Source of the DNA: a virus
Lineage: Duplodnaviria > Heunggongvirae > Uroviricota > Caudoviricetes
Reading direction: 5' to 3' (one strand)
Virus record (IMG/VR): IMGVR_UViG_3300022555_000023
Location: 8,095-72,094 of that record
DNA length: 64,000 nucleotides
Position 1 is the first letter of the stretch. Each line of letters begins with the position of its first letter. Shown here piece by piece: positions 5,690-64,000 of the stretch. A program made the position numbers and the translations under genes. A model generated the notes under the pieces. The model made no database searches and had not been told where the DNA came from. It saw only the letters and a program-made list of their open reading frames with translations.

Positions 5690-8600
5690 TCAACCCTTGG
5701 CATGCTGCTCAGCTTGGCGACGATAGAATCGTGCCCGACCGAAGTGATTACTCGCTCGGTTCGTGCTGCCGGCAGCTCGGTGCTTCACGGCAGAATCGGC
5801 AAACGCCTCAGATGCCCTGACTGCCAACGAGGCTTTCTCGCCCGGTGATGCCGTGGATGCTCGGTACGCCTTGCCCGCCTGCTGGGCCGTCTTCATGGCC
5901 GCGTCAGCACGCTCCTGCATGGCCGCGTAAGCTGGATGATCCTTGAGCTTGCCCTTGCGGTCTTCAAACTCGTGGTCGCTGGCCCCGTGCTCGTGCAGGT
6001 GCATGAAGGCCATCAGGGCTCGGGCCTGCTCGTCATGGTCTTCGGTTCCGGGCTGGTCTCCGACCGCCTCGGCCAGCTTGGCGGCCTTCATGTGCTTCAC
6101 CGCGGCATCGCCCAGGCGGTTGCCGATCCAGTGGTGCATGGAATCCTCGATGTCGGGCGTCAGGGCCTGCGGCGGTCCACCGTGGTGGTGGGCGTTCATG
6201 GCCTCGCCCGCAGCTATGCGGGCGGCGTAGTCGGCCTGCTCGTACTGGATAGCCTTCTTCGCGTCGGGCTCCTTGGGCTGGCCAGCACTGTACTGATTGC
6301 CGCGGAATTCATGCCCCGCAACGTCACCAAGCTCCAGCGGCACATCCAGACTCAACCGAGCGTCGCGGGGGCGGCGGGGAGGATGGGCTTCAGCCTGGGC
6401 CTTGGCCGCGTTATCTCGCAGGGCCTGCATCCTGCCGGCGGATGGCAGTCTGACCACGTGCTCGCCTGCTCCGCGTATGCGTCGCGATTCCTCCTCGTGT
6501 TCGCGAGCCGCAGAGATTGCTGCCTTCTGGGCGGCGTGGTGCATGCTGGCGAACTCCAGGCTGACGTCACTGCCGTCTTCTTCATGATGCTGGGCGGCGA
6601 GAACATGACCTTTAGCAGCCTTCTGGAACTGCTCGGCGGCCTTATCATGATCTGCCGCCGCACCGGAGGCAATGGCTTTCTTCGCCGTCACCAGGGCCAC
6701 GTTGTTATCGCTGGTCGACGCGATGCTCTTGGCTAGTGCGCCCTTCTGCACCGTACCGGCTAGGGGGAACAACTTATAGTTCCGGATGGCGGCGTTAGCC
6801 TTGGCAGATGATTCTGTTGCCGTGAACTGGTTGCCATGAAACGCGTGCCCTGCGACGTCACCAAGCTCGATAGGTAGATCATGACTCAGGCCCTTGATCT
6901 GGAAATCATTCTGACGGCCCTGCACGTTGGCATTGTGAGCATCCCCGTACTTGCGACCATGCTCGTCATCATCTTCCGGGTTCCAGCCGGCGGCAATGGC
7001 CTGCCTACGCATCTCATCTGCCTGGAGACTCATGCGTTTTCCCTGAGCCATCGAAGTATGACGTGTTGCCAGGTCTTCCAGCTTCTCAGGATCATTGGCA
7101 GCACTCTTCGCCACGGGCAAACCACGGTTCTCATACACGCCCCGCACGGTTCTGCCGACAGCCGCAGCCTCCCTCAGATGACCCGCAGCATCGAGATGAT
7201 GCTGTATGGCCTCGGGTGTATCCCCGGCAGCCAGAGCCCGTGATGCTGCTTGTCCAGCCTGCGTTGTATGGTACTTGTGCTCAACGTAGGCTGACATACT
7301 TACATCATTTGCCGCCGCGTGCGTATCATCATGAAGTTGCTGAGCTGCCGTGACTGCATTGCTTTGCGCTACCGCCGGCAATGCAGTCAAATCTGTCTGG
7401 GGACGGTCATGATACGGCTCGATCATATTCTTACCCACGCTTTGCTGCGGGTTTATGGGCAGTCCCGCATCGTGCGTGATCACAACAGCATTGCCGCGGT
7501 CTTCGACGACCCGGAAGTCACGAGCATCATCTCCGGGATCCTGCCACTCCGGTTTGATGGCTACCCGCTGGCCTGCCAGGTACTGGCCGTGCTGCTCGGC
7601 GGCTCCCTCCAGATACTTAGCCGTCTCAATATGCTCTCGTGCCGCCATTCTGTGCTGGCCGCGTTCAAGCTGGGTCAGCCTTGGTGCCTCAGAGGCATTC
7701 GCATGACCTTCGGCGGCGTCGCGACAACGTGATGCTGCGGCAGAATACAGGCCGTCCTTGACGAGACGCTTCGCATCATCTGAAGCGTCCACATGACGTT
7801 TGCCAGCCCGTGCGCCCTTCGTACTGTTGGTGGCGTCACTAGCCTTCTTCACAGCATCAACGGCTCCCTGGTGCGTGTACTGATTCCCGTGGAACTCGTG
7901 ACCTGCAACGTCACCAAGCTCAAGATCAATATTTAGGCCATGACCTAAATTTAGGTCATCGGCTAACGCGGTGTCAGTTTGGCTCATGGCCATATCCTCT
8001 GGTTTGGTACTTCCAGTCCAAGACTGGAGATGATGGTTCGCCAGTTCCTGTAGGGCCTCGCCGGCAGAGCGACAGGCGTCGGCGGCGTCTTCATGATATG
8101 AATCGTGACCATCGGAACTGTTCAGGTCAGCATCGTTGTGCAGGTCGGCTGTGTGATGATACTCGTTCGCAGCCCTCGCACAGGCTTTGAAAGCAGCGTC
8201 GTTCGACCGGCCCGAGGCTGACTCCTTCAGGGCGACCACGGCTGCCGTGTTGGCCGCACCGTGTGCGTCGCGTGCGGCTGCTCCGCGGCGACCGGGCGGT
8301 GAGCCAATGGCTTCCTTGCTGGCCTTGGCGGCGTAGTCTACGGCCTCCTGTGCGGTCGCGGCGAACCTCCCACGGGCGTCCCGTTCCTGGCCCTCGCCGT
8401 GGCTGGCCCGCAGATCTCCCCGCAGGGCGGTAGCTCCGTCGCCAACAGCGTCGTCCTTGGGCTGGCACGTCTGGCCGCAGGTCGGGCACTTACCATCCTG
8501 ACACGCACCCTTGCAGGCCGGGCAGGTGGCATCCTGGCTCAATGCGGCGTCCTTACCGCCACCGATGAGAACCGGGTGTCCGTTGATCGTGACCCAATGA

Positions 8601-23235: not shown

Positions 23236-23420
23236 CCTATCCAGACATGCGGGTAGTCGCTCATGTGGCCCTCGTAAATCAACCAGAACACTTCGTCTCC
23301 GCCGATGGTCTCACCGCTTTCGGATGCATAATCATCGATCATGTTTCTGATCTCGGTTGGGCCGACGTTCTGGCCTGCGGTCAGGCGTTGCTGTAAGTAG
23401 TCTAGTAGGCTCATGATCAA
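23232..23420 (-). CDS. hypothetical protein
   Basis: 62-aa ORF, 4-nt overlaps on both sides. Confidence 0.55.
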   Translation of the reverse strand: MIMSLLDYLQQRLTAGQNVGPTEIRNMIDDYASESGETIGGDEVFWLIYEGHMSDYPHVWIG

Positions 23421-23794
23421 AGCTCCCAGCCAGGCCGCGATGATGGCGGCGGTGCAGGTGGTTCGGGCGGCGGTGTCTGCATGCGGCGGCGTACTATGAC
23501 TGGCCTCGTCAGTTCCCGTACCAGGGCGATCATAGCGTTTGTGGCAGTCTCAACGTCGGGCATGCGGCGACTCATGAAGGCCGCCTGCCTGTCTTCCAGT
23601 ATCTGCTTAATGCGGTTCTTGACGTCTTCGTCGGACATAACCTCGCGGCCACGCACGAAGTCCTCGGAGAACCGCATGATCTGGCCACGATACTCTGACT
23701 TACGATAGGCATCGTTGGCCGCGACGAGGCGGGTTAGTAGATTATGCAGAAAGTCGGTGTCGCCTTGGTTCATGCCTAACCAGACACGGCTCAC
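23417..23794 (-). CDS. hypothetical protein with C-terminal RRRMQT tag
   Basis: ..VRRRMQTPPPEPPAPPPSSRPGWEL*. Start is GTG 23794 or ATG 23773. Confidence 0.6.
   Translation of the reverse strand: MSRVWLGMNQGDTDFLHNLLTRLVAANDAYRKSEYRGQIMRFSEDFVRGREVMSDEDVKNRIKQILEDRQAAFMSRRMPDVETATNAMIALVRELTRPVIVRRRMQTPPPEPPAPPPSSRPGWEL
23780..23787 (-). promoter_or_regulatory. GTGTCTGG junction motif
   Basis: Between stop 23791 and ATG 23773. Confidence 0.5.
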
Positions 23795-54833: not shown

Positions 54834-55451
54834 TCACATCGCGGCTGAATTGATTCCGCCATTCGTCACCACGCCATAGTATGTGATCAGCAGGGCGTCG
54901 CATACCGCCATTTGCTCCTTCTTCGTCTTCTGCCACACGTCCAGATCGGGCATCAGTTCCTGAGCCCGCTTGCGGATATCCTCTTTGTGTTCAGCCTGGA
55001 GCAGTGCTTTGACCGCCTTGGTCGTCCGTGTGCTGCCGTCCTGCTTGCGGAAGTCCACGGGCACTGGCTTGCGGGTCGTCGGGATGTTCATGGCCCGCTG
55101 CCAAGTGGCGGGCTGCACCTTAACCGGGATGATATCCAGAGCTGTCATGAACGCCAGAAGTCGCCCGTAACCTACGCCAAACTTGAATGCCCCAGCCACG
55201 CCCATCGCATAGGCATGCACGGCCTCGATGTAGACGCTGACGTTGCTTGGATCCGCGATATGCTGCCGCAGCCAAGCCCACAGTTCGTCGTTCCCTTCGG
55301 GCATCCGCTTGACCAACATGATCGCGTTGGGTCCGGTCTCGGTGACAGCCAAGCCACCGTTCATGCCGGGATCGATACCCATGATCAGTCTGCGTTCGGG
55401 AGTGATCACCTCACGCCAGTCGGTAGTTTTAATGCGGCGGCGTTCGGTCAC
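54834..55451 (-). CDS. RuvC-like Holliday junction resolvase, N-terminal ERRRIKT
   Basis: IMGIDPGMNGG, VYIEAV, ..PATWQRAM.., VCDALLI catalytic pattern. Confidence 0.75.
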   Translation of the reverse strand: MTERRRIKTTDWREVITPERRLIMGIDPGMNGGLAVTETGPNAIMLVKRMPEGNDELWAWLRQHIADPSNVSVYIEAVHAYAMGVAGAFKFGVGYGRLLAFMTALDIIPVKVQPATWQRAMNIPTTRKPVPVDFRKQDGSTRTTKAVKALLQAEHKEDIRKRAQELMPDLDVWQKTKKEQMAVCDALLITYYGVVTNGGINSAAM

Positions 55452-55699
55452 GCGGTCTCCAGTTTATGCACCAGCCGTAGAAGCTCGATACCGACGTCCT
55501 TCAGGTCTGGGTAGTGCTGGCTTGCGGCAGCATAGGCCACAGCAGCCTCGCGGCACGAGGCGATGTGGCCTATGCTGCCACCACTGTCCAGACGCAGTAC
55601 GAAGTACACGGCGTTCGGGTCGCACGTCGTACCATCGGCCTTGGTGACCTTATACCGCTGGTGAAGTCCGTTAGGATTCTCTTCGGCTGTTGGTATCAT
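55448..55699 (-). CDS. hypothetical protein
   Basis: 83-aa ORF. Confidence 0.55.
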   Translation of the reverse strand: MIPTAEENPNGLHQRYKVTKADGTTCDPNAVYFVLRLDSGGSIGHIASCREAAVAYAAASQHYPDLKDVGIELLRLVHKLETA

Positions 55700-58483: not shown

Positions 58484-59044
58484 TCAAAATGGGACATCGT
58501 CCACCCTACCACGGTTCGCGGCTATGGTTCGCAGCCTAAGATTCCTATAAGAACAGTTCGCCCTATTCTTATCTCGATGATCTACATCGTAACCATCCGG
58601 TATTAGTTTTCGGCGAACGGCCATGTAAACTAATCTGTGAACCATAGCACCCTTGCGGTGACCGTTCCAGTAGATGCGGACGCTGGGGTAACCATTACGG
58701 TCTAAATCCTGCTTGAGGATGACCCACTGCTTCGTCCACTCGTGACAAACCTTGCGGTGCTTACGAACCACGCCGGTTATCGGATTGACCTTGAGATGAC
58801 CTTCCTCGATCAGTTGTAGTATTTGATCATCGGTCATCCTGCGGTATTTGCGCTCGCGGTAGTTTCGCAGCTTCTCGACGTAGACTGCGTCGGTTCGCCA
58901 TTTGCCGCCGCAGGCAAGGCACTTCACCTCGGAATACTTACTGGCCACCTCGTCGCCGGTCGTCGATGTAGCCACGAACCGCCGCGTGCAAACGTAGTTA
59001 CTCCGGGTTCTACATCCCGGCAGACAGCGGCAGCCTTGAGCCAT
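58484..59044 (-). CDS. HNH_3-type homing endonuclease
   Basis: NGYPSVRIYWNGHRKGAMVHRLVYMA..DVDHRDKNRANCSYRNLRL. Confidence 0.8.
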   Translation of the reverse strand: MAQGCRCLPGCRTRSNYVCTRRFVATSTTGDEVASKYSEVKCLACGGKWRTDAVYVEKLRNYRERKYRRMTDDQILQLIEEGHLKVNPITGVVRKHRKVCHEWTKQWVILKQDLDRNGYPSVRIYWNGHRKGAMVHRLVYMAVRRKLIPDGYDVDHRDKNRANCSYRNLRLRTIAANRGRVDDVPF

Positions 59045-59048
59045 AGTC

Positions 59049-59198
59049 TCATCCCTTGGTATTCCTGATGAATGGGCGTAGGAACCACCAGGGACGGCGT
59101 TCGGGCTGACCTGGGATATGGTGAACGAGACCCCACAGCCTGTCGTATTGTTGCTCGCTGAGCTTCAGGCCGTTAACGGCCCGGATAAATGCCCACAT
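59049..59198 (-). CDS. small hypothetical protein (49 aa)
   Basis: MWAFIRAVNGLKLSEQQYDRLWGLVHH.. Below the ORF-track cutoff. Confidence 0.4.
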   Translation of the reverse strand: MWAFIRAVNGLKLSEQQYDRLWGLVHHIPGQPERRPWWFLRPFIRNTKG

Positions 59199-59203
59199 GG
59201 TTC

Positions 59204-59416
59204 TCAGCGAGTCCACGGTTCACCTCTGTGGTTTAATCTCATGCGACGGTCGATGATACGTCGGGCCACACGCGATGCGCAGTCCAGATCTTCGGGCGAC
59301 AGAATACCTTGCTGTACAAGCTGAATCATGTGCATCGCCGCCTCATGAATCTTCGGATCATTCTGGTAACGCCGTTCGTCGTCCTCGGCCTGGCAGTTCA
59401 ACGGGTCGTCGTCCAT
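59204..59416 (-). CDS. hypothetical protein
   Basis: 70-aa ORF. Confidence 0.55.
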   Translation of the reverse strand: MDDDPLNCQAEDDERRYQNDPKIHEAAMHMIQLVQQGILSPEDLDCASRVARRIIDRRMRLNHRGEPWTR

Positions 59417-59417
59417 A

Positions 59418-59672
59418 TCATTCGTACCTCGGCTTTATTAACCACAGGTCGGGTCGGCCCTGAACTGATGTGATGCTAATAGAATGGGCGAAGGGAAACA
59501 TGGCCTTCGCCTGCTCCATCGCCTCGCCCGTGGTTTTGCCCAACACGATATGAGAATCGGGACGCGTGCTATCGTAAATCTCCGGTGATGACTCCAGCAC
59601 GCCGCGGACGACGAAGCCCACCACGTATCCTACAGCCACCGCAATTCCGGTTACGATCCACATGGCCGTCAC
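59418..59672 (-). CDS. small membrane protein
   Basis: MTAMWIVTGIAVAVGYVVGFVV transmembrane helix. Confidence 0.55.
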   Translation of the reverse strand: MTAMWIVTGIAVAVGYVVGFVVRGVLESSPEIYDSTRPDSHIVLGKTTGEAMEQAKAMFPFAHSISITSVQGRPDLWLIKPRYE

Positions 59673-59675
59673 CTC

Positions 59676-60248
59676 CTAGCGACGTCCGCGTCGTGCCGCC
59701 CAGCGAGCAAATAGGCCCTGGCGTTCGCGCCCGCCCCGTGACGATCCGTACTGATCACCCTGCGGTGTCGTTTCAGGGGCGACGGCTGGGGGCGTCTGGC
59801 CGACTTCGCGTCGGGCCTCGGCTGTTTGCAGGGGATGCGTGATAGCCCGCACAGCGTTTGCCACAGGGCCGTTGGGTCGATTGCCCACGAATAACTGGCA
59901 GAACTTGACCCCGTTGTTGTATGACGCTGCGGCCCCGGCGTAGGTAAAGTTGCCGGTTGTATTGCACGCCAGCCAGCCACTGCTGATAGCTCCGCCGTCG
60001 CAGCCGCCGAAGTCGGCCCATGATCCCCTGGGCAGGAACGCGAAGTCGTTCCCGGTGTGGTGATGCATGCCGTAACTGGCACGATAGTCGGCGCAGGCCA
60101 TCGCACCCTGCGTCATCGCTGCGTCCCGCTGGAATGCAGGCATACCGTGCTGGGCACGAATTGCGTTCACTTCATCGAGAGCATCGGTCGCGGCATTGGC
60201 AATGCCCGCAATGCATACGACCACAAAGAACAAAACTGACTTCATCAT
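59676..60248 (-). CDS. secreted CAP/SCP/PR-1-like protein
   Basis: Trimmed to ATG 60248 (TAGGAGGA SD). Signal MMKSVLFFVVVCIAGIANA. ALDEVNAIRAQHGMPAFQRDAAMTQGAMACAD resembles the SCP-like family. Confidence 0.55.
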   Translation of the reverse strand: MMKSVLFFVVVCIAGIANAATDALDEVNAIRAQHGMPAFQRDAAMTQGAMACADYRASYGMHHHTGNDFAFLPRGSWADFGGCDGGAISSGWLACNTTGNFTYAGAAASYNNGVKFCQLFVGNRPNGPVANAVRAITHPLQTAEARREVGQTPPAVAPETTPQGDQYGSSRGGRERQGLFARWAARRGRR

Positions 60249-60276
60249 CTTCTTCCTCCTAATGGTGAAATTCGCC

Positions 60277-61470
60277 TTAGCTACCGTACTTCGAGAAGTT
60301 CGGCGAGAATGACTCCTCGATCTTGTCCCACTCGGCCCGCACCACTGCGGACATACGCTTGGATTCGCTAATGTACATTTCACGCGGCTGTTTGTCCAGC
60401 CACTTCAGGTACGTTCCAGGTTTTCGTTCATCGAACAGTTCCCACTTCTTCACCTCAACTAACCAGTCTGCCATCGATTCGATGTCATCGATGCCGTAGT
60501 CAAAGATCACGGGGAACTCGCACTCGCGGAACGGCGGGCCACACTTGTTCTTCTTGCACTTGGCCTTGATGCGAACACCGACCACGCGTTCGATGCCGTT
60601 GACCGAGCGTTTGATCTGGCCAATATGCGACAGCCACACCACCCACGAAGCGTAGAAGTCCAGGGCTTTGCCGCCGGCACGCGTCGCCTTCTCGCCGAAC
60701 GATACATTCAGCTTGTCGCGTAGCTGCGAGATGACTATCAGGGTCACCTTGGCGGAGTTCAAAGGGCCGGCCAGGGTGCGGAAGAACTGTGACATGCGTT
60801 TGGCCTTCGCCATACCGTAACTGGCCTTGTCCATACCGCCATCCAGTTCGGCCTGATCGCTCAGGGCATCAAGGCTATCGATGATATACAAGCCTGGCAC
60901 GCGACGGCGTTCACACTCGGCAATGAAGTCCTTCACGTCCTGAAAGAACACCTCGACGATACGGCACTCCTCGACGAAGCTGATTCTGTCCATCGGCAGT
61001 CCCATGCGGCGGGCATAATTCACATCGAACGCGGCCTCGGCGTCGTTATATCGCGTGATGCCGGTCGGATAGGCGATGGAAAAGTTGGCACACGCCTCGA
61101 TGCATACGCCTGTCTTGTTCGTTGACTGCCAGCCAGCGAAGTTCACCACGCGGCCTTCAGGGAACGCTCCGCCACCACCACCACCAATCTCGCAGTCCAG
61201 AAGGGTACAGCCCGAACCGAATCGTTTAACACGGATATCCTCCATGTCGCCCGTGAGCCCGTAGGCCCCACCGTCGCGTACCAACGGCTCGTCATCGGTA
61301 TCGCGGGCGGTCTTGCGGCGAGTAGCCTTAGCCGTGCGACGTGGGGCTGCACGTGACCCGCGGGCCGGTGTTTCATCTTCGGTTGACTCGACGTCTTCGT
61401 CCTCTTCCTCACGCTGCGGAGGTGGGGGCGTTGCCGTTACGAGACGTCGTCGAACTATTTTCTTCGCCAT
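60277..61470 (-). CDS. RecA-fold recombinase-like ATPase
   Basis: Degenerate P-loop GWQSTNKTG, Walker B LYIIDSLDAL, GGKALDFYAS as in RecA. Acidic N-terminal region preceded by MAKKIVRRRLVT. Confidence 0.65.
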   Translation of the reverse strand: MAKKIVRRRLVTATPPPPQREEEDEDVESTEDETPARGSRAAPRRTAKATRRKTARDTDDEPLVRDGGAYGLTGDMEDIRVKRFGSGCTLLDCEIGGGGGGAFPEGRVVNFAGWQSTNKTGVCIEACANFSIAYPTGITRYNDAEAAFDVNYARRMGLPMDRISFVEECRIVEVFFQDVKDFIAECERRRVPGLYIIDSLDALSDQAELDGGMDKASYGMAKAKRMSQFFRTLAGPLNSAKVTLIVISQLRDKLNVSFGEKATRAGGKALDFYASWVVWLSHIGQIKRSVNGIERVVGVRIKAKCKKNKCGPPFRECEFPVIFDYGIDDIESMADWLVEVKKWELFDERKPGTYLKWLDKQPREMYISESKRMSAVVRAEWDKIEESFSPNFSKYGS

Positions 61471-61613
61471 GATCTAACCTTCCTGATGCCCCGTATGCAC
61501 AGTCCTATGAAGAAGACATACAACATTCCGGGTGCGGTCAAAATGATGAACGGGAAAGTCCAAATCTTGTGAACTTTCTCCGCCTCGTCGCATACGTCTA
61601 AAAACCAGTTCAT
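61455..61613 (-). CDS. small membrane protein (52 aa)
   Basis: GAGG SD, MNWFLDVC..FPFIILTAPGMLYVFFIGLCI. Overlaps the recombinase start. Confidence 0.45.
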   Translation of the reverse strand: MNWFLDVCDEAEKVHKIWTFPFIILTAPGMLYVFFIGLCIRGIRKVRSWRRK

Positions 61614-61638
61614 AGTTACCTCGGCTGACTAGACACGA

Positions 61639-61887
61639 TCACGGTTGCTTTCCCGTTTCCGTAGTCTGATACCGCATCCGCATCTCGACGCCTGACATAC
61701 CACAGCGAGGACAGCGTTGCCTGATGGAATCGTACTTGAACCAGTACGGCATGAAGAAGCACGGATGCGGTAGGCCACGGAGGCGTTCGCCTGGATCCAT
61801 CCGGTCAGCACTCGCCTGTCGAAGAAGTAGATCGATCTCGGCATCGTCATTATCGACAGGCGAGGTGACCGGACTCGCTGGAACCAT
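61639..61887 (-). CDS. hypothetical protein
   Basis: GGAGA SD 9 nt upstream. C-terminal CPRCG. Confidence 0.55.
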   Translation of the reverse strand: MVPASPVTSPVDNDDAEIDLLLRQASADRMDPGERLRGLPHPCFFMPYWFKYDSIRQRCPRCGMSGVEMRMRYQTTETGKQP

Positions 61888-61989
61888 AGCTCATGATCTC
61901 CATATAAAGCGAGCCCGGCTATTTCGGAATCGCCGCCGGGCGGGGCACGTGCAGGCCCCTCAGAGACCGTCGTCATCTGCATGCCTGCA

Positions 61990-62457
61990 CTTGTTCATTC
62001 TGCCGTAGAACGATCATATCGTTCGCGCCTGCATGTCGTTGACGCATTGCTGGCTTAACCGTTTTCGATACCATCGGTCGCTACGAGCTACCTACTGCAT
62101 CGTTCGTATCTAACCACCTCCGCTATCACCGTAGTATGCTAGGTAGGAGTGCAAACCCAGCGCGTCTACGAGCACATCGTCGTCTGATCCAAGAACAAAC
62201 CCGTCGCTTCGCAATCGGGTGGTGAAGGCTGGTCTCGCAGGCAACCCTGCCGCCTTGCGTTGACAGGCCATGCTGCGGTCGAGTGGAACGCCCATCAGGT
62301 GTGCTCAAGCGCGTCCATCCCAATCCGTCCTGATTCCGGCCAGCCCTCACCACCCGCCTCTCCCCCACTGGGACTGAGAGGCGAAGCCTTGCGGCTACCC
62401 ACCAGTCTACCCGTCGCCGGGTTTTCCTTCTAGTGCAGGTAGTCGCAATCATTCGGT
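61990..62457 (-). ncRNA. candidate structured non-coding RNA
   Basis: No convincing ORF. 17-bp long-range helix (62340..62356 with 62215..62232; its G-U pair is only valid on the minus-strand transcript). GCAA tetraloop hairpin at 62385..62396. 7-bp hairpin at 62356..62382. Confidence 0.35.
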
Positions 62458-63780
62458 TCAGCTTTCGCTGCGGCGGCGTCCCTCGGCCACGCGATCCCGC
62501 AAGCTCGTGCGTGCGGGCGGGGCGTCGTCGGCATCGGCGTCGCGGCTTCGGCTGCGGGTCTCGCGGGCCGGTGGGTCAGTAGCCTCCTCGGCAGCACGGC
62601 TGCTGCGGCGGCGGGCTGGCGGGGCGTCGTCGTGGCCCGTGTCGCGGGCTGGCGGCGGGTCACGGTCGTCATCGACGTCCGCGTCGGCTTCTCGGCTGCG
62701 GCCCCCGTTGCGGCCAGCACGGGCCGGTGGCGGGTCATCGTCGTGGTCGTCGCGGTCGCGTCCTCGCCCACGTGCGGGCGGCGGATCATCATCAACGTCA
62801 GCGTCGCGTCCCCGGATCGCCGGTCGGCGGGCTCGGTTGTCGTCATCGTCGTCGGCGATATCGCGTGCTCGGCTACGGCTGCCGCGATCACCATCGTCGT
62901 CGTCGCGGGCGTGCCTGCGGTCGTCACCGCGATTTCCACCGCCTCGGCGATCATCTCCACCTTCGTCGCGGTTGCGGCGTTGCCCGGCCAGAGCAGCCTT
63001 GATGTGCTCATAGTCGTGGAAGGTGAGAAGCTCGGGAATCGGATTCTCGGCGATGGTACGCAACCAGTCGTCCTGACGGTCAGGGTTGTCGCTCAGCGGC
63101 GTGCTGCGGCGAGCAATGGCGATGCCACCGTACTTCGTCTTGATGCCGGTGCCGGTCACAGAAAACTCGATGTCGAATCCCTCCTCGGGATGATCGATGC
63201 ACACGGCTTCGCGGGTTTCCTTGTCCATGCTCAGCTTGTTCAAGTCGCGGTCCATCGACCACGCCATGTTCCAAAGCTGCGGGCCACTGTTGCGTTCGTC
63301 GCGGTCGATCACGTATGCGATCACCCGCTTTGTCGGCTGAAGGTTGCGGATGTAATCGTCGAAGTCCTTATCCGCCATCGACATCCCAGCAGCACCCAGT
63401 GCGGCGACGCGTTCACGCTCTTCGCACACCGGGCAGGCTTCGCCCTTCATCTTCTTCAGGCAGAAGTACTTCTGATTGTCCGCGCCCACGCTGAAGTGAA
63501 CATAGACCTCCAGGCCAAAGTCATCGGCACCTTCCGGATCCCAGTCGTCGGAACGTGTGGGATGGACGATCCCCAGTTCTTCCAGCAGATGATCGTTCCA
63601 CGACGGCGGGCAGATACGCAGCCGCCAGTCGCCCTCCTTGATGGAGACGACGTCAACATCGCTGCGGAACAGCGAGTCGAAAGCACCACCGCTCTGGTTG
63701 GCACGCCGCTGTACGGTGGCCGATGAGCGTTCGCGGTATTGAAAACCGCCGCGATTTCGGTCGTTGCCTCTTGTAGGCAT
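62458..63780 (-). CDS. gp32-like single-stranded DNA-binding protein with repetitive Asp/Arg/Pro tail
   Basis: H-x11-C-x8-C-x2-C (YVHFSVGADNQKYFCLKKMKGEACPVCEE) mirrors the T4 gp32 zinc site. The C-terminal ~170 aa carry six D-rich (P)PPAR repeats. Confidence 0.75.
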   Translation of the reverse strand: MPTRGNDRNRGGFQYRERSSATVQRRANQSGGAFDSLFRSDVDVVSIKEGDWRLRICPPSWNDHLLEELGIVHPTRSDDWDPEGADDFGLEVYVHFSVGADNQKYFCLKKMKGEACPVCEERERVAALGAAGMSMADKDFDDYIRNLQPTKRVIAYVIDRDERNSGPQLWNMAWSMDRDLNKLSMDKETREAVCIDHPEEGFDIEFSVTGTGIKTKYGGIAIARRSTPLSDNPDRQDDWLRTIAENPIPELLTFHDYEHIKAALAGQRRNRDEGGDDRRGGGNRGDDRRHARDDDDGDRGSRSRARDIADDDDDNRARRPAIRGRDADVDDDPPPARGRGRDRDDHDDDPPPARAGRNGGRSREADADVDDDRDPPPARDTGHDDAPPARRRSSRAAEEATDPPARETRSRSRDADADDAPPARTSLRDRVAEGRRRSES

Positions 63781-63885
63781 GGGTTCACCTCATTGGTTAC
63801 AGGTTCTTGGTTCCAGCGTTACGGGTCGCCTTATCGTCCCGCTTGCTACTCCTACACTAAACACATCTGCCGTTGGCTTCCGCGA

Positions 63886-63999
63886 TCATTCTCGCGAGGT
63901 GCTGTTCATGCGACGTCGCTGGTCCGCCACGGCTTGGCGGGCCTCGTCACCTGCACGTTCTTCGGCGGCACGTCGGTCACCGGCGAGGCTTGCGTTGGC
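63886..63999 (-). CDS. hypothetical protein, 5' end beyond window
   Basis: Open frame from the window edge to TGA at 63886..63888. Confidence 0.4.
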   Translation of the reverse strand, partial: ANASLAGDRRAAEERAGDEARQAVADQRRRMNSTSRE

Positions 64000-64000
64000 C

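Follow-up and report, generated by a model that had tools for sequence, protein, structure and literature searches.

The R sites of phage T7 are intercistronic hairpins for RNase III processing and 3′ stabilization, each a simple irregular hairpin of ~60 nt. An RNase III site takes about two helical turns of double-stranded RNA. The operator of phage T4 gene 32 is an RNA pseudoknot of about 30 nt that lies at the 5′ end of the gene's own leader, ahead of an unstructured A/U-rich ribosome-binding region, and is bound by gp32. Comparative genomics has also yielded orphan structured RNAs, including the phage-associated GOLLD and ROOL, and all of these are in Rfam (Weinberg et al. 2010, PMC2864571). 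Here we describe module A, a candidate structured RNA in a 64,000-nt stretch of viral DNA (Caudoviricetes; IMG/VR record IMGVR_UViG_3300022555_000023, positions 8,095 to 72,094), referred to as the window. Module A lies on the minus strand directly behind the gene for a gp32-like single-stranded DNA-binding protein (SSB). Coordinates are window positions unless a locus label (L003, L136 and so on) precedes them.

Like the T7 R sites, module A is a predicted sense-strand structure between cistrons, right after a highly expressed early/middle gene. It likewise contains long double-stranded segments (17–20 bp) and is dispensable and variable between relatives. Its longest helix, P3, is 17–20 bp, the length relevant to a candidate RNase III site. 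Unlike the R sites, it spans ~240 nt, with a multi-helix junction, GNRA loops and an invariant core, and any cleavage of it is putative. With the T4 gene 32 operator it shares the association with a gp32-like SSB gene and a compact, pseudoknot-like fold near an unstructured stretch and a ribosome-binding site, but it lies 3′ of the SSB gene and is eight times larger. The SSB 5′ leaders of three lineages have no excess structure (z −0.5 to +0.7). Like GOLLD and ROOL, module A is phage-borne, strongly structured and free of open reading frames (ORFs), with covariation and GNRA loops; unlike them, it matches no Rfam model, is much smaller and was seen in only two or three closely related lineages.

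Folding models and comparison with relatives indicate that module A is a genuine, independently folding, noncoding RNA domain of about 240 nt on the sense strand. Its core is constrained in sequence and its arms in structure, and the element is modular and dispensable. Phage genomes are gene-dense; a conserved stretch of 240 nt that lacks ORFs and retains its helices through changes in their sequences is therefore under selection as RNA. We regard it as a well-supported candidate RNA motif, drawn from two to three sequences of one narrow phage lineage. In the modeled architecture, two peripheral hairpins (H1 and H2) precede P3, a helix of 17–20 bp that closes a junction. A small hairpin, P4 and the GNRA-capped P5 lie inside this junction. 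The parts are as follows.

62216–62457, minus strand: module A, conserved structured RNA domain of ~242 nt, beginning with the first base after the SSB stop codon UGA (62458–62460)
62389–62448, minus strand: H1, long irregular hairpin (UUGCG/CGCAA, CUACC/GGUAG, CACUAG/CUGGUG)
62410–62421, minus strand: inner hairpin of H1, CCCG-GCGA-CGGG
62356–62382, minus strand: H2, 7 bp, an AG(U) bulge and 4 bp
62340–62356, minus strand: 5′ arm of P3, the long closing helix, CGGGUGGUGAGGGCUGG
62288–62339, minus strand: conserved core, with the small hairpin, P4 and the AUCAGG/CCUGAU complementarity
62325–62339, minus strand: small hairpin within the core, CCG-GAAUCAGGA-CGG
62329–62334 with 62294–62299, minus strand: AUCAGG and CCUGAU, loop–loop or pseudoknot complementarity
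62288–62312, minus strand: P4 hairpin within the core
62236–62277, minus strand: P5, irregular hairpin capped by a GCAA tetraloop
62216–62232, minus strand: 3′ arm of P3, CCAGCCUUCACCACCCG

The fold is stronger than expected from composition. A 266-nt segment (62195–62460) folds at −125.5 kcal/mol (z = −4.71), and none of 200 shuffles was as good. The arms of P3 form a 17-nt inverted repeat that is 94% complementary and gives 17 uninterrupted pairs on the minus strand, one of them G·U; the longest uninterrupted helix in 100 dinucleotide shuffles of the region was 14 bp. The initial annotation of this locus, made by a model from the sequence, had already described this repeat with its 17 pairs and the G·U. 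The bulged C that it placed in the helix came from a miscopied extra C, and the arm ends at 62216 rather than 62215. Also present is the complementarity it pointed out between AUCAGG and CCUGAU. These stretches probably form a 6-bp loop–loop or pseudoknot contact.

A single full-length relative of module A was recovered, in a lineage designated G2 (L136:319–565), whose SSB is 70% identical to that of the window. Folded independently, it gives −125.5 kcal/mol (z = −4.56) and the same order of helices. The expectation that homologues would support the helices held: among 56 helix-matched pairs, 36 are the same, 7 are changed on one side, 13 on both sides, and none is broken. Pairs were counted by matching helices by hand, which replaced a MAFFT and RNAalifold treatment of the window and G2 that misaligned the 5′ half. 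Covariance models were built on the window sequence alone and searched across 92 sources (700 kb). The model finds the G2 core with 60.8 bits (E = 6e-9). With filters off, a model of the 5′ domain has G2 as its best non-self match, at the right place and with all helices paired (23 bits, E = 0.0012). No further match to module A was found in the 92 sources, which include 80 related IMG/VR loci and the rest of the window.

The peripheral helices change most. The outer stem of H1 is wholly different in G2 (CGGUGCCGU/ACGGCACCG) with pairing retained, and its inner hairpin reads CCCG-GAAA-CGGG against CCCG-GCGA-CGGG in the window; both loops are GNRA. H2 reads GGCCCUG-AGU-CUGG-GAUG-CCAG-CAGGGCC in G2, with 6 of its 11 pairs changed on both sides, 1 on one side and none broken. 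The GCCUCUC/GAGAGGC hairpin of the initial annotation (62356–62382) is this H2, so its covariation with G2 bears that proposal out. An AGCC-GCAA-GGCU hairpin exists as described, but it competes with the longer, homologue-supported H1 and has no counterpart in the homologue. The proposed GGAA/UUCC helix is not conserved: UUCC is UGGC in the homologue.

P3 extends over 20 positions in G2, the extra ones being a C-G pair on both arms, an A·C mismatch and a C-G pair beside H2. The G·U of the window is G-C in G2. The 3′ arm is conserved in G2 (CCAGCCCCUCGACCACCCGG) and in a partial relative, G3 (UCAGCCUCCCGACCACCCG). In mid-P3, the A-U pair of the G2 step 5′-GA-3′/5′-UC-3′ becomes G-C when a 5′-arm remnant in a further lineage, G1, is paired with the G3 3′ arm. 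P5 is GNRA-capped in three lineages, by GCAA in the window, by GAAA on a different hairpin at the same place in G2, and by GCAA in G3, where it is a minimal perfect hairpin (GUUGCG-GCAA-CGCAGC).

The core changes least. Its nearly invariant stretches are GGGCUGGCCGGAAUCAGGACGG, CACACCUGAU-GGCGU-CACUC, CCAGCC and ACCACCCG, with GGGCUGGCCGGAAUCAGGACGG and CACACCUGAU identical in the window and G2. P4 has four one-sided changes, and its pairing is kept through wobble. Between window and G2 the core is 78% identical over 79 nt, and the SSB coding sequence 76%. In H1 and H2, BLAST no longer detects any similarity.

The structure belongs to the minus strand, as had been proposed. By our own count from the matched helices, 7 G·U pairs in the window and 3 in G2 would be A·C on the plus strand, and the reverse direction gives only one A·C, in G2. 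GNRA loops occur on the minus strand only. The sense strand has better z-scores than the antisense strand in both window and G2. Taken together, the G·U pairs, the GNRA loops and the sense-strand z-scores indicate that module A is a sense-strand RNA.

The ORFs of the gap had been dismissed as frame noise, and the searches agree. The three gap ORFs have no significant match to Pfam or PHROGs (best PHROGs E = 0.05). G2 has stop codons in all three sense frames. A tblastx comparison of window and G2 gives similarity in all six frames, in the conserved core only, and the best frame shifts between segments. No reading frame is conserved, as one would be in a small-protein gene. Known RNA families gave nothing either, in line with the earlier failure to place the region in a known class. 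Rfam 15, with its models of riboswitches, ribozymes, group I/II introns, RNase P, 6S, Y RNA, GOLLD, ROOL, HEARO and others, had no match at gathering thresholds in the whole window. Permissive scans of 61500–62900, 62190–62470 and the G2 homologue returned noise only (E ≥ 0.058), all of it outside module A. With ARAGORN, the window yielded neither tRNA nor tmRNA genes. Literature searches gave no identification of module A.

The initial annotation took the ~470 nt behind the SSB gene as one large structured RNA. The structure is there, but only 62216–62457 (~242 nt) makes up the unit. When the whole region (476 nt) is folded, z is −3.5 for the minus strand and −2.35 for the plus. In a sliding 200-nt scan, 62201–62400 had z = −3.7, the fourth lowest among 320 windows, and scan windows starting at 62001–62151 had z of about −0.7 to +0.8. 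The lowest value across the 64 kb was at 61801–62000 (z = −5.1), and 61790–62010 forms a second structured patch (z = −4.46) that reaches into the downstream ORF. Because the folding signal is this uneven, we divide the region into three: module A at the 5′ end, a spacer without structure, and a further structured patch that includes module B. The features outside module A are as follows.

62191–62220, minus strand: window-specific terminator-like hairpin, ACCCG.UUGC-GAA-GCGA.CGGGU followed by UUUGUUCUU
61994–62190, minus strand: spacer outside the structured RNA, with no excess structure, absent from G2, G3 and G1
61913–61993, minus strand: module B, two hairpins (Ba, 61947–61993; Bb, 61913–61941) just upstream of the ribosome-binding site of an 82-aa gene

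Nothing in the relatives or elsewhere in the window resembles the spacer. A decayed gene was rejected as its origin, as tblastx showed no similarity to either. The terminator-like hairpin folds at −10.4 kcal/mol, no better than shuffles (z about 0), shares its first 5 nt with the 3′ arm of P3, and is absent from G2 and G3. The terminator scanner gave no call at 62191–62220; P3 itself encloses 107 nt and lacks a U tract. Any role of this hairpin is putative. Module B has z = −2.5. Its Bb hairpin (GCCCGGC...GCCGGGC) has a 39-nt match of 92% identity in both G1 and G3, where Ba differs in sequence and still forms a hairpin. Module B is independent of module A: G1 has only B, and G2 has only A.

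Relatives were sought in several collections. GenBank phages had no nucleotide match to the region. Exact and gapped pattern scans with the arm and core motifs of IMG/VR, JGI metagenomes and GTDB genomes matched only unrelated, mostly coding sequence. A single-protein scan of IMG/VR with the SSB found no relatives. A profile-based scan gave the 80 loci, with SSB identity of at most 47%, and module A is absent from these by BLAST and by covariance model. For each of the SSB, the 82-aa protein and RecA there are a small number of relatives with 57–70% identity, all in the ENA GROS21-1 assemblies. Four states of the locus are distinguished there, with L123 and L124 grouped together as the fourth.

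G2 (L136, L137; fragments L003, L125): complete module A, no spacer, no module B
G3 (L122): contig begins inside module A; 3′ half of module A, 22 nt, module B
G1 (L126–L135, L141–L145; the commonest): module A missing; module B, preceded by about 60 nt that hold two small hairpins
L123: a 65-aa ORF in place of module A
L124: no module A; SSB gene and RecA separated by only 82 nt, which contain one strong hairpin

Module A is a dispensable, cassette-like element that is absent from G1, L123 and L124. In G2, 12 nt separate the 3′ arm of P3 from the start codon of the 82-aa gene. Module B of G1 is identical to that of G3. G1 retains CCCGGUGGUCGGG, the complement of the G3 3′ arm CCCGACCACCCG except for one missing G, and because of this remnant we read G1 as a derivative of a G3-like element by a deletion of roughly 190 nt. 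Four independent GROS21-1 contigs break or have gaps in or beside module A (L003:5663–5672, the end of L004, and the starts of L122 and L125). Co-existing strains with and without the cassette would explain these breaks. The L003 sequence before its gap departs from L136 after GAACGCC, which hints at an additional variant.

In most of the 80 IMG/VR loci, the next ORF starts within a few bases of the SSB stop codon; this ORF (about 330–380 aa) is taken as RecA by its size. The few loci with a gap behind the SSB gene mostly hold other long hairpins, some of them terminator-like (L010, L020, L041–43, L063). Two IMG/VR loci with SSB identity of about 47% (L007:5222–5340 and L008:5144–5260) share a structured region behind the SSB gene that is unrelated in sequence to module A. 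Its hairpins vary by compensatory changes, for example UACGGA...UCCGUA and UAUGGG...CCCAUA.

The minus strand is the coding strand for every gene at this end of the window. The neighboring genes are as follows.

62458–63780, minus strand: gp32-like SSB, 440 aa, upstream of module A
61639–61887, minus strand: 82-aa CxxC-motif protein, downstream of the gap
Between the 82-aa gene and RecA, minus strand: 52-aa ORF
60277–61470, minus strand: RecA (PF00154, E = 7.7e-40)

The SSB was assigned from PF08804 (E = 7.7e-5, just below the curated cut-off) and a PHROG for SSB (E = 2.6e-11). The last 5 kb of the window (59001–64000) match a segment of a 192.5-kb metagenome contig in ENA (ERZ27245846 k141_83342) without a difference, and near-identical copies of these 5 kb are present in several further assemblies.

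We tentatively favor the reading that module A is a co-transcribed intercistronic RNA domain acting in cis on the operon mRNA. It would be transcribed in the sense direction within an operon for replication and recombination that runs from SSB to RecA. On the polycistronic mRNA it would act as an intercistronic processing and stability element. The GC-rich P3 and compact core could provide a nuclease-resistant 3′ end for the highly expressed SSB message; alternatively, P3 could provide a cleavage site for a double-strand-specific RNase. Module A would then set how much transcript or translation passes into the downstream 82-aa and RecA genes. In the window this gating might go through the adjacent weak terminator-like hairpin (62191–62220), and in G2 through direct abutment on the ribosome-binding site of the next gene. 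The sequence-invariant core would be recognized by a specific partner, either protein or RNA. Module A begins ≤10 nt from the SSB stop codon in both window and G2. A scan of 61400–62700 found no promoter-like site, which together with the position inside the operon makes action in cis the most likely. Such action would also fit the tendency of relatives toward strong hairpins behind the SSB gene (L010, L020, L041–43, L063, L124 and G1).

Several points weigh against this interpretation. One full homologue and one half do not permit a statistical test of covariation, and matching of helices by hand or by a fitted model leans toward the structure. P3, the small hairpin and the AUCAGG/CCUGAU contact are almost invariant, so the comparison gives no test of them. 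The terminator-like hairpin is weak by the values above, is not conserved, and cannot compete with a 17-bp GC-rich helix. Since G1, L123 and L124 lack module A, any cis role is non-essential. A plain stabilizer or terminator would need neither an invariant core nor several GNRA loops. These two features better fit a specific binding or catalytic RNA, which makes a stand-alone noncoding RNA almost as likely.

As a stand-alone accessory RNA, module A would use P3 as a processing stem that releases a stable core RNA of ~110–140 nt to act in trans. For example, it may sequester a protein of the host or of the phage, as a decoy or sponge and perhaps for counter-defense. We consider this possible and rank it just behind the cis reading. 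The contrast of an invariant core with fast-evolving peripheral helices and GNRA loops speaks for it, as does presence or absence among near-identical phages, which is expected of accessory functions. P3 is extended in the window by GCUUCGC/GCGAAGC. The differing flanks in the window, G2 and G3 suggest that module A functions independently of a fixed neighbor. Against it, the scans detected neither a dedicated promoter nor a dedicated terminator, and no partner gene comes and goes together with module A. Neither the 92 sources (700 kb) nor the exact-pattern scans of the collections yielded a second copy or a distant family member.

It is unlikely that module A represents a class of compact phage RNAs seen here for the first time, whose specific tertiary fold would serve molecular recognition rather than mRNA housekeeping. 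In such an RNA the junction core would be held by the loop–loop contact and braced by the GNRA-capped arms. It might act as a ligand sensor, as a catalytic RNA or as a decoy for a protein or defense system, and large phages would carry it as an optional cassette within their replication and recombination module. If the invariant core binds a specific partner, module A would be a new phage RNA tool and the G1 deletion lineage would provide natural knock-outs. If it is only an elaborate mRNA end or processing signal, it would be one more example of how phages tune SSB expression against that of the recombinase.

A leader that responds to a ligand or protein, either riboswitch-like or a translational operator, and controls the 82-aa and RecA genes is improbable. 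The binding domain would be shared and the expression platforms would differ, being terminator-like in the window and abutting the ribosome-binding site in G2. Like riboswitch aptamers, module A combines a helix-closed, conserved junction core with peripheral stems that vary, and the sequence after its 3′ arm differs by lineage; T4 gene 32 gives a precedent for translational control of an SSB through an RNA pseudoknot. Unlike them, it follows a stop codon rather than lying consistently in a 5′ untranslated region, and no riboswitch class of Rfam matches at E ≤ 10. Its closing helix of 17–20 bp is GC-rich and far too stable to switch, which makes a riboswitch unlikely; a riboswitch-style competition between terminator and anti-terminator was dropped for the same stability of P3. 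About 330 nt, among them the unstructured spacer and module B, lie between module A and the start codon to be regulated in the window, and G1 has the same downstream genes without module A.

It is very unlikely that module A is a DNA-level or selfish element, such as a miniature inverted-repeat transposable element (MITE), an IS200/IS605-type hairpin, a replication origin or a recombination hotspot of a hyperplastic region, with the RNA fold incidental. The cassette swapping between the SSB and RecA genes (the 65-aa ORF of L123, nothing in L124, and modules A and B in all combinations) would suit such an element, as would the assembly breaks inside module A and a TnpB-like gene 1.6 kb from RecA in one relative. 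Like MITEs and IS200/IS605 hairpin elements, module A measures about 140–240 bp, carries an inverted repeat and is polymorphic for presence. Unlike them, it occurs as a single copy in the window, with no other match in the 92 related sources (700 kb), and its inverted repeat is internal, with H1 and H2 outside it. G1 keeps the 5′ arm, so its loss is an imprecise deletion and not an excision. The compensatory changes are of RNA type, both the G·U pairs and the GNRA loops are features of RNA that hold for one strand only, and there are no iterons and no AT-rich unwinding region. The neighbors of module A are the SSB gene, the 82-aa ORF, the 52-aa ORF and RecA, not the TnpB or IscB gene expected beside a guide (omega) RNA, and the module A model had no match in the TnpB-bearing L124. 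That relative, with RecA identity of 57%, carries its TnpB-like gene (matches to OrfB_IS605 and Cas12f1-like TNB) at L124:6704–7768, in the same replication and recombination module.

Most improbable is a self-cleaving ribozyme, which would sever the message of the SSB gene from that of the genes downstream on the polycistronic mRNA: the intergenic phage position, the pseudoknot-like core, a 3-bp hairpin with a 9-nt loop resembling P3/L3 of ribozymes like that of hepatitis delta virus (HDV), and a 7-bp P1-like helix that UCCCAGU and AUUGGGA could form in the window all point that way, but G2 lacks this pairing (UGAGAAA, no partner), the segment belongs to the covarying H2, no Rfam ribozyme model matches, and 240 nt is large for the small self-cleaving classes. 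An HDV-like ribozyme, a nested double pseudoknot in which the 5′ end and the strand behind P3 pair as a 7-bp P1, was rejected because P1 is not conserved.

Other features of the locus were noted. Repeated units of Asp, Arg and Pro (DDDPPPAR..., RSRDADVDDD...) make the C-terminal ~170 aa of the SSB (62458–62970, minus strand) a long tail of low complexity. The 70%-identical relative has this tail as well. GC content in the region is very high (0.70–0.77). A motif conserved in three lineages, GTGTYTAGWGTAG (63852–63864, minus strand), precedes the SSB start codon by ~70–85 nt; its counterparts are at about L003:4218–4230 and L141:2447–2460. It was rejected as a repeated promoter motif, as it occurs once in the window.

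This genome may characteristically carry long hairpins inside its genes. One, of 22 pairs in the window, lies in the first third of the coding sequence of the 82-aa ORF (61799–61874, minus strand). All four lineages (window, G2, G1 and L123) retain its inner 13 pairs, and 5 pairs are changed on both sides. None of 500 shuffles reached its covariation score, and slid controls fell to 33–49% paired. It has a weak, sub-threshold likeness to the frameshift-stimulating hairpin Antizyme_FSE (E = 0.058). An 83-aa ORF (55448–55699) contains a nearly perfect stem of ~28 bp (about 55490–55570, minus strand; z = −4.6), and a 125-aa ORF (23417–23794) contains a structured patch at about 23600–23700 (minus strand; z = −4.4).

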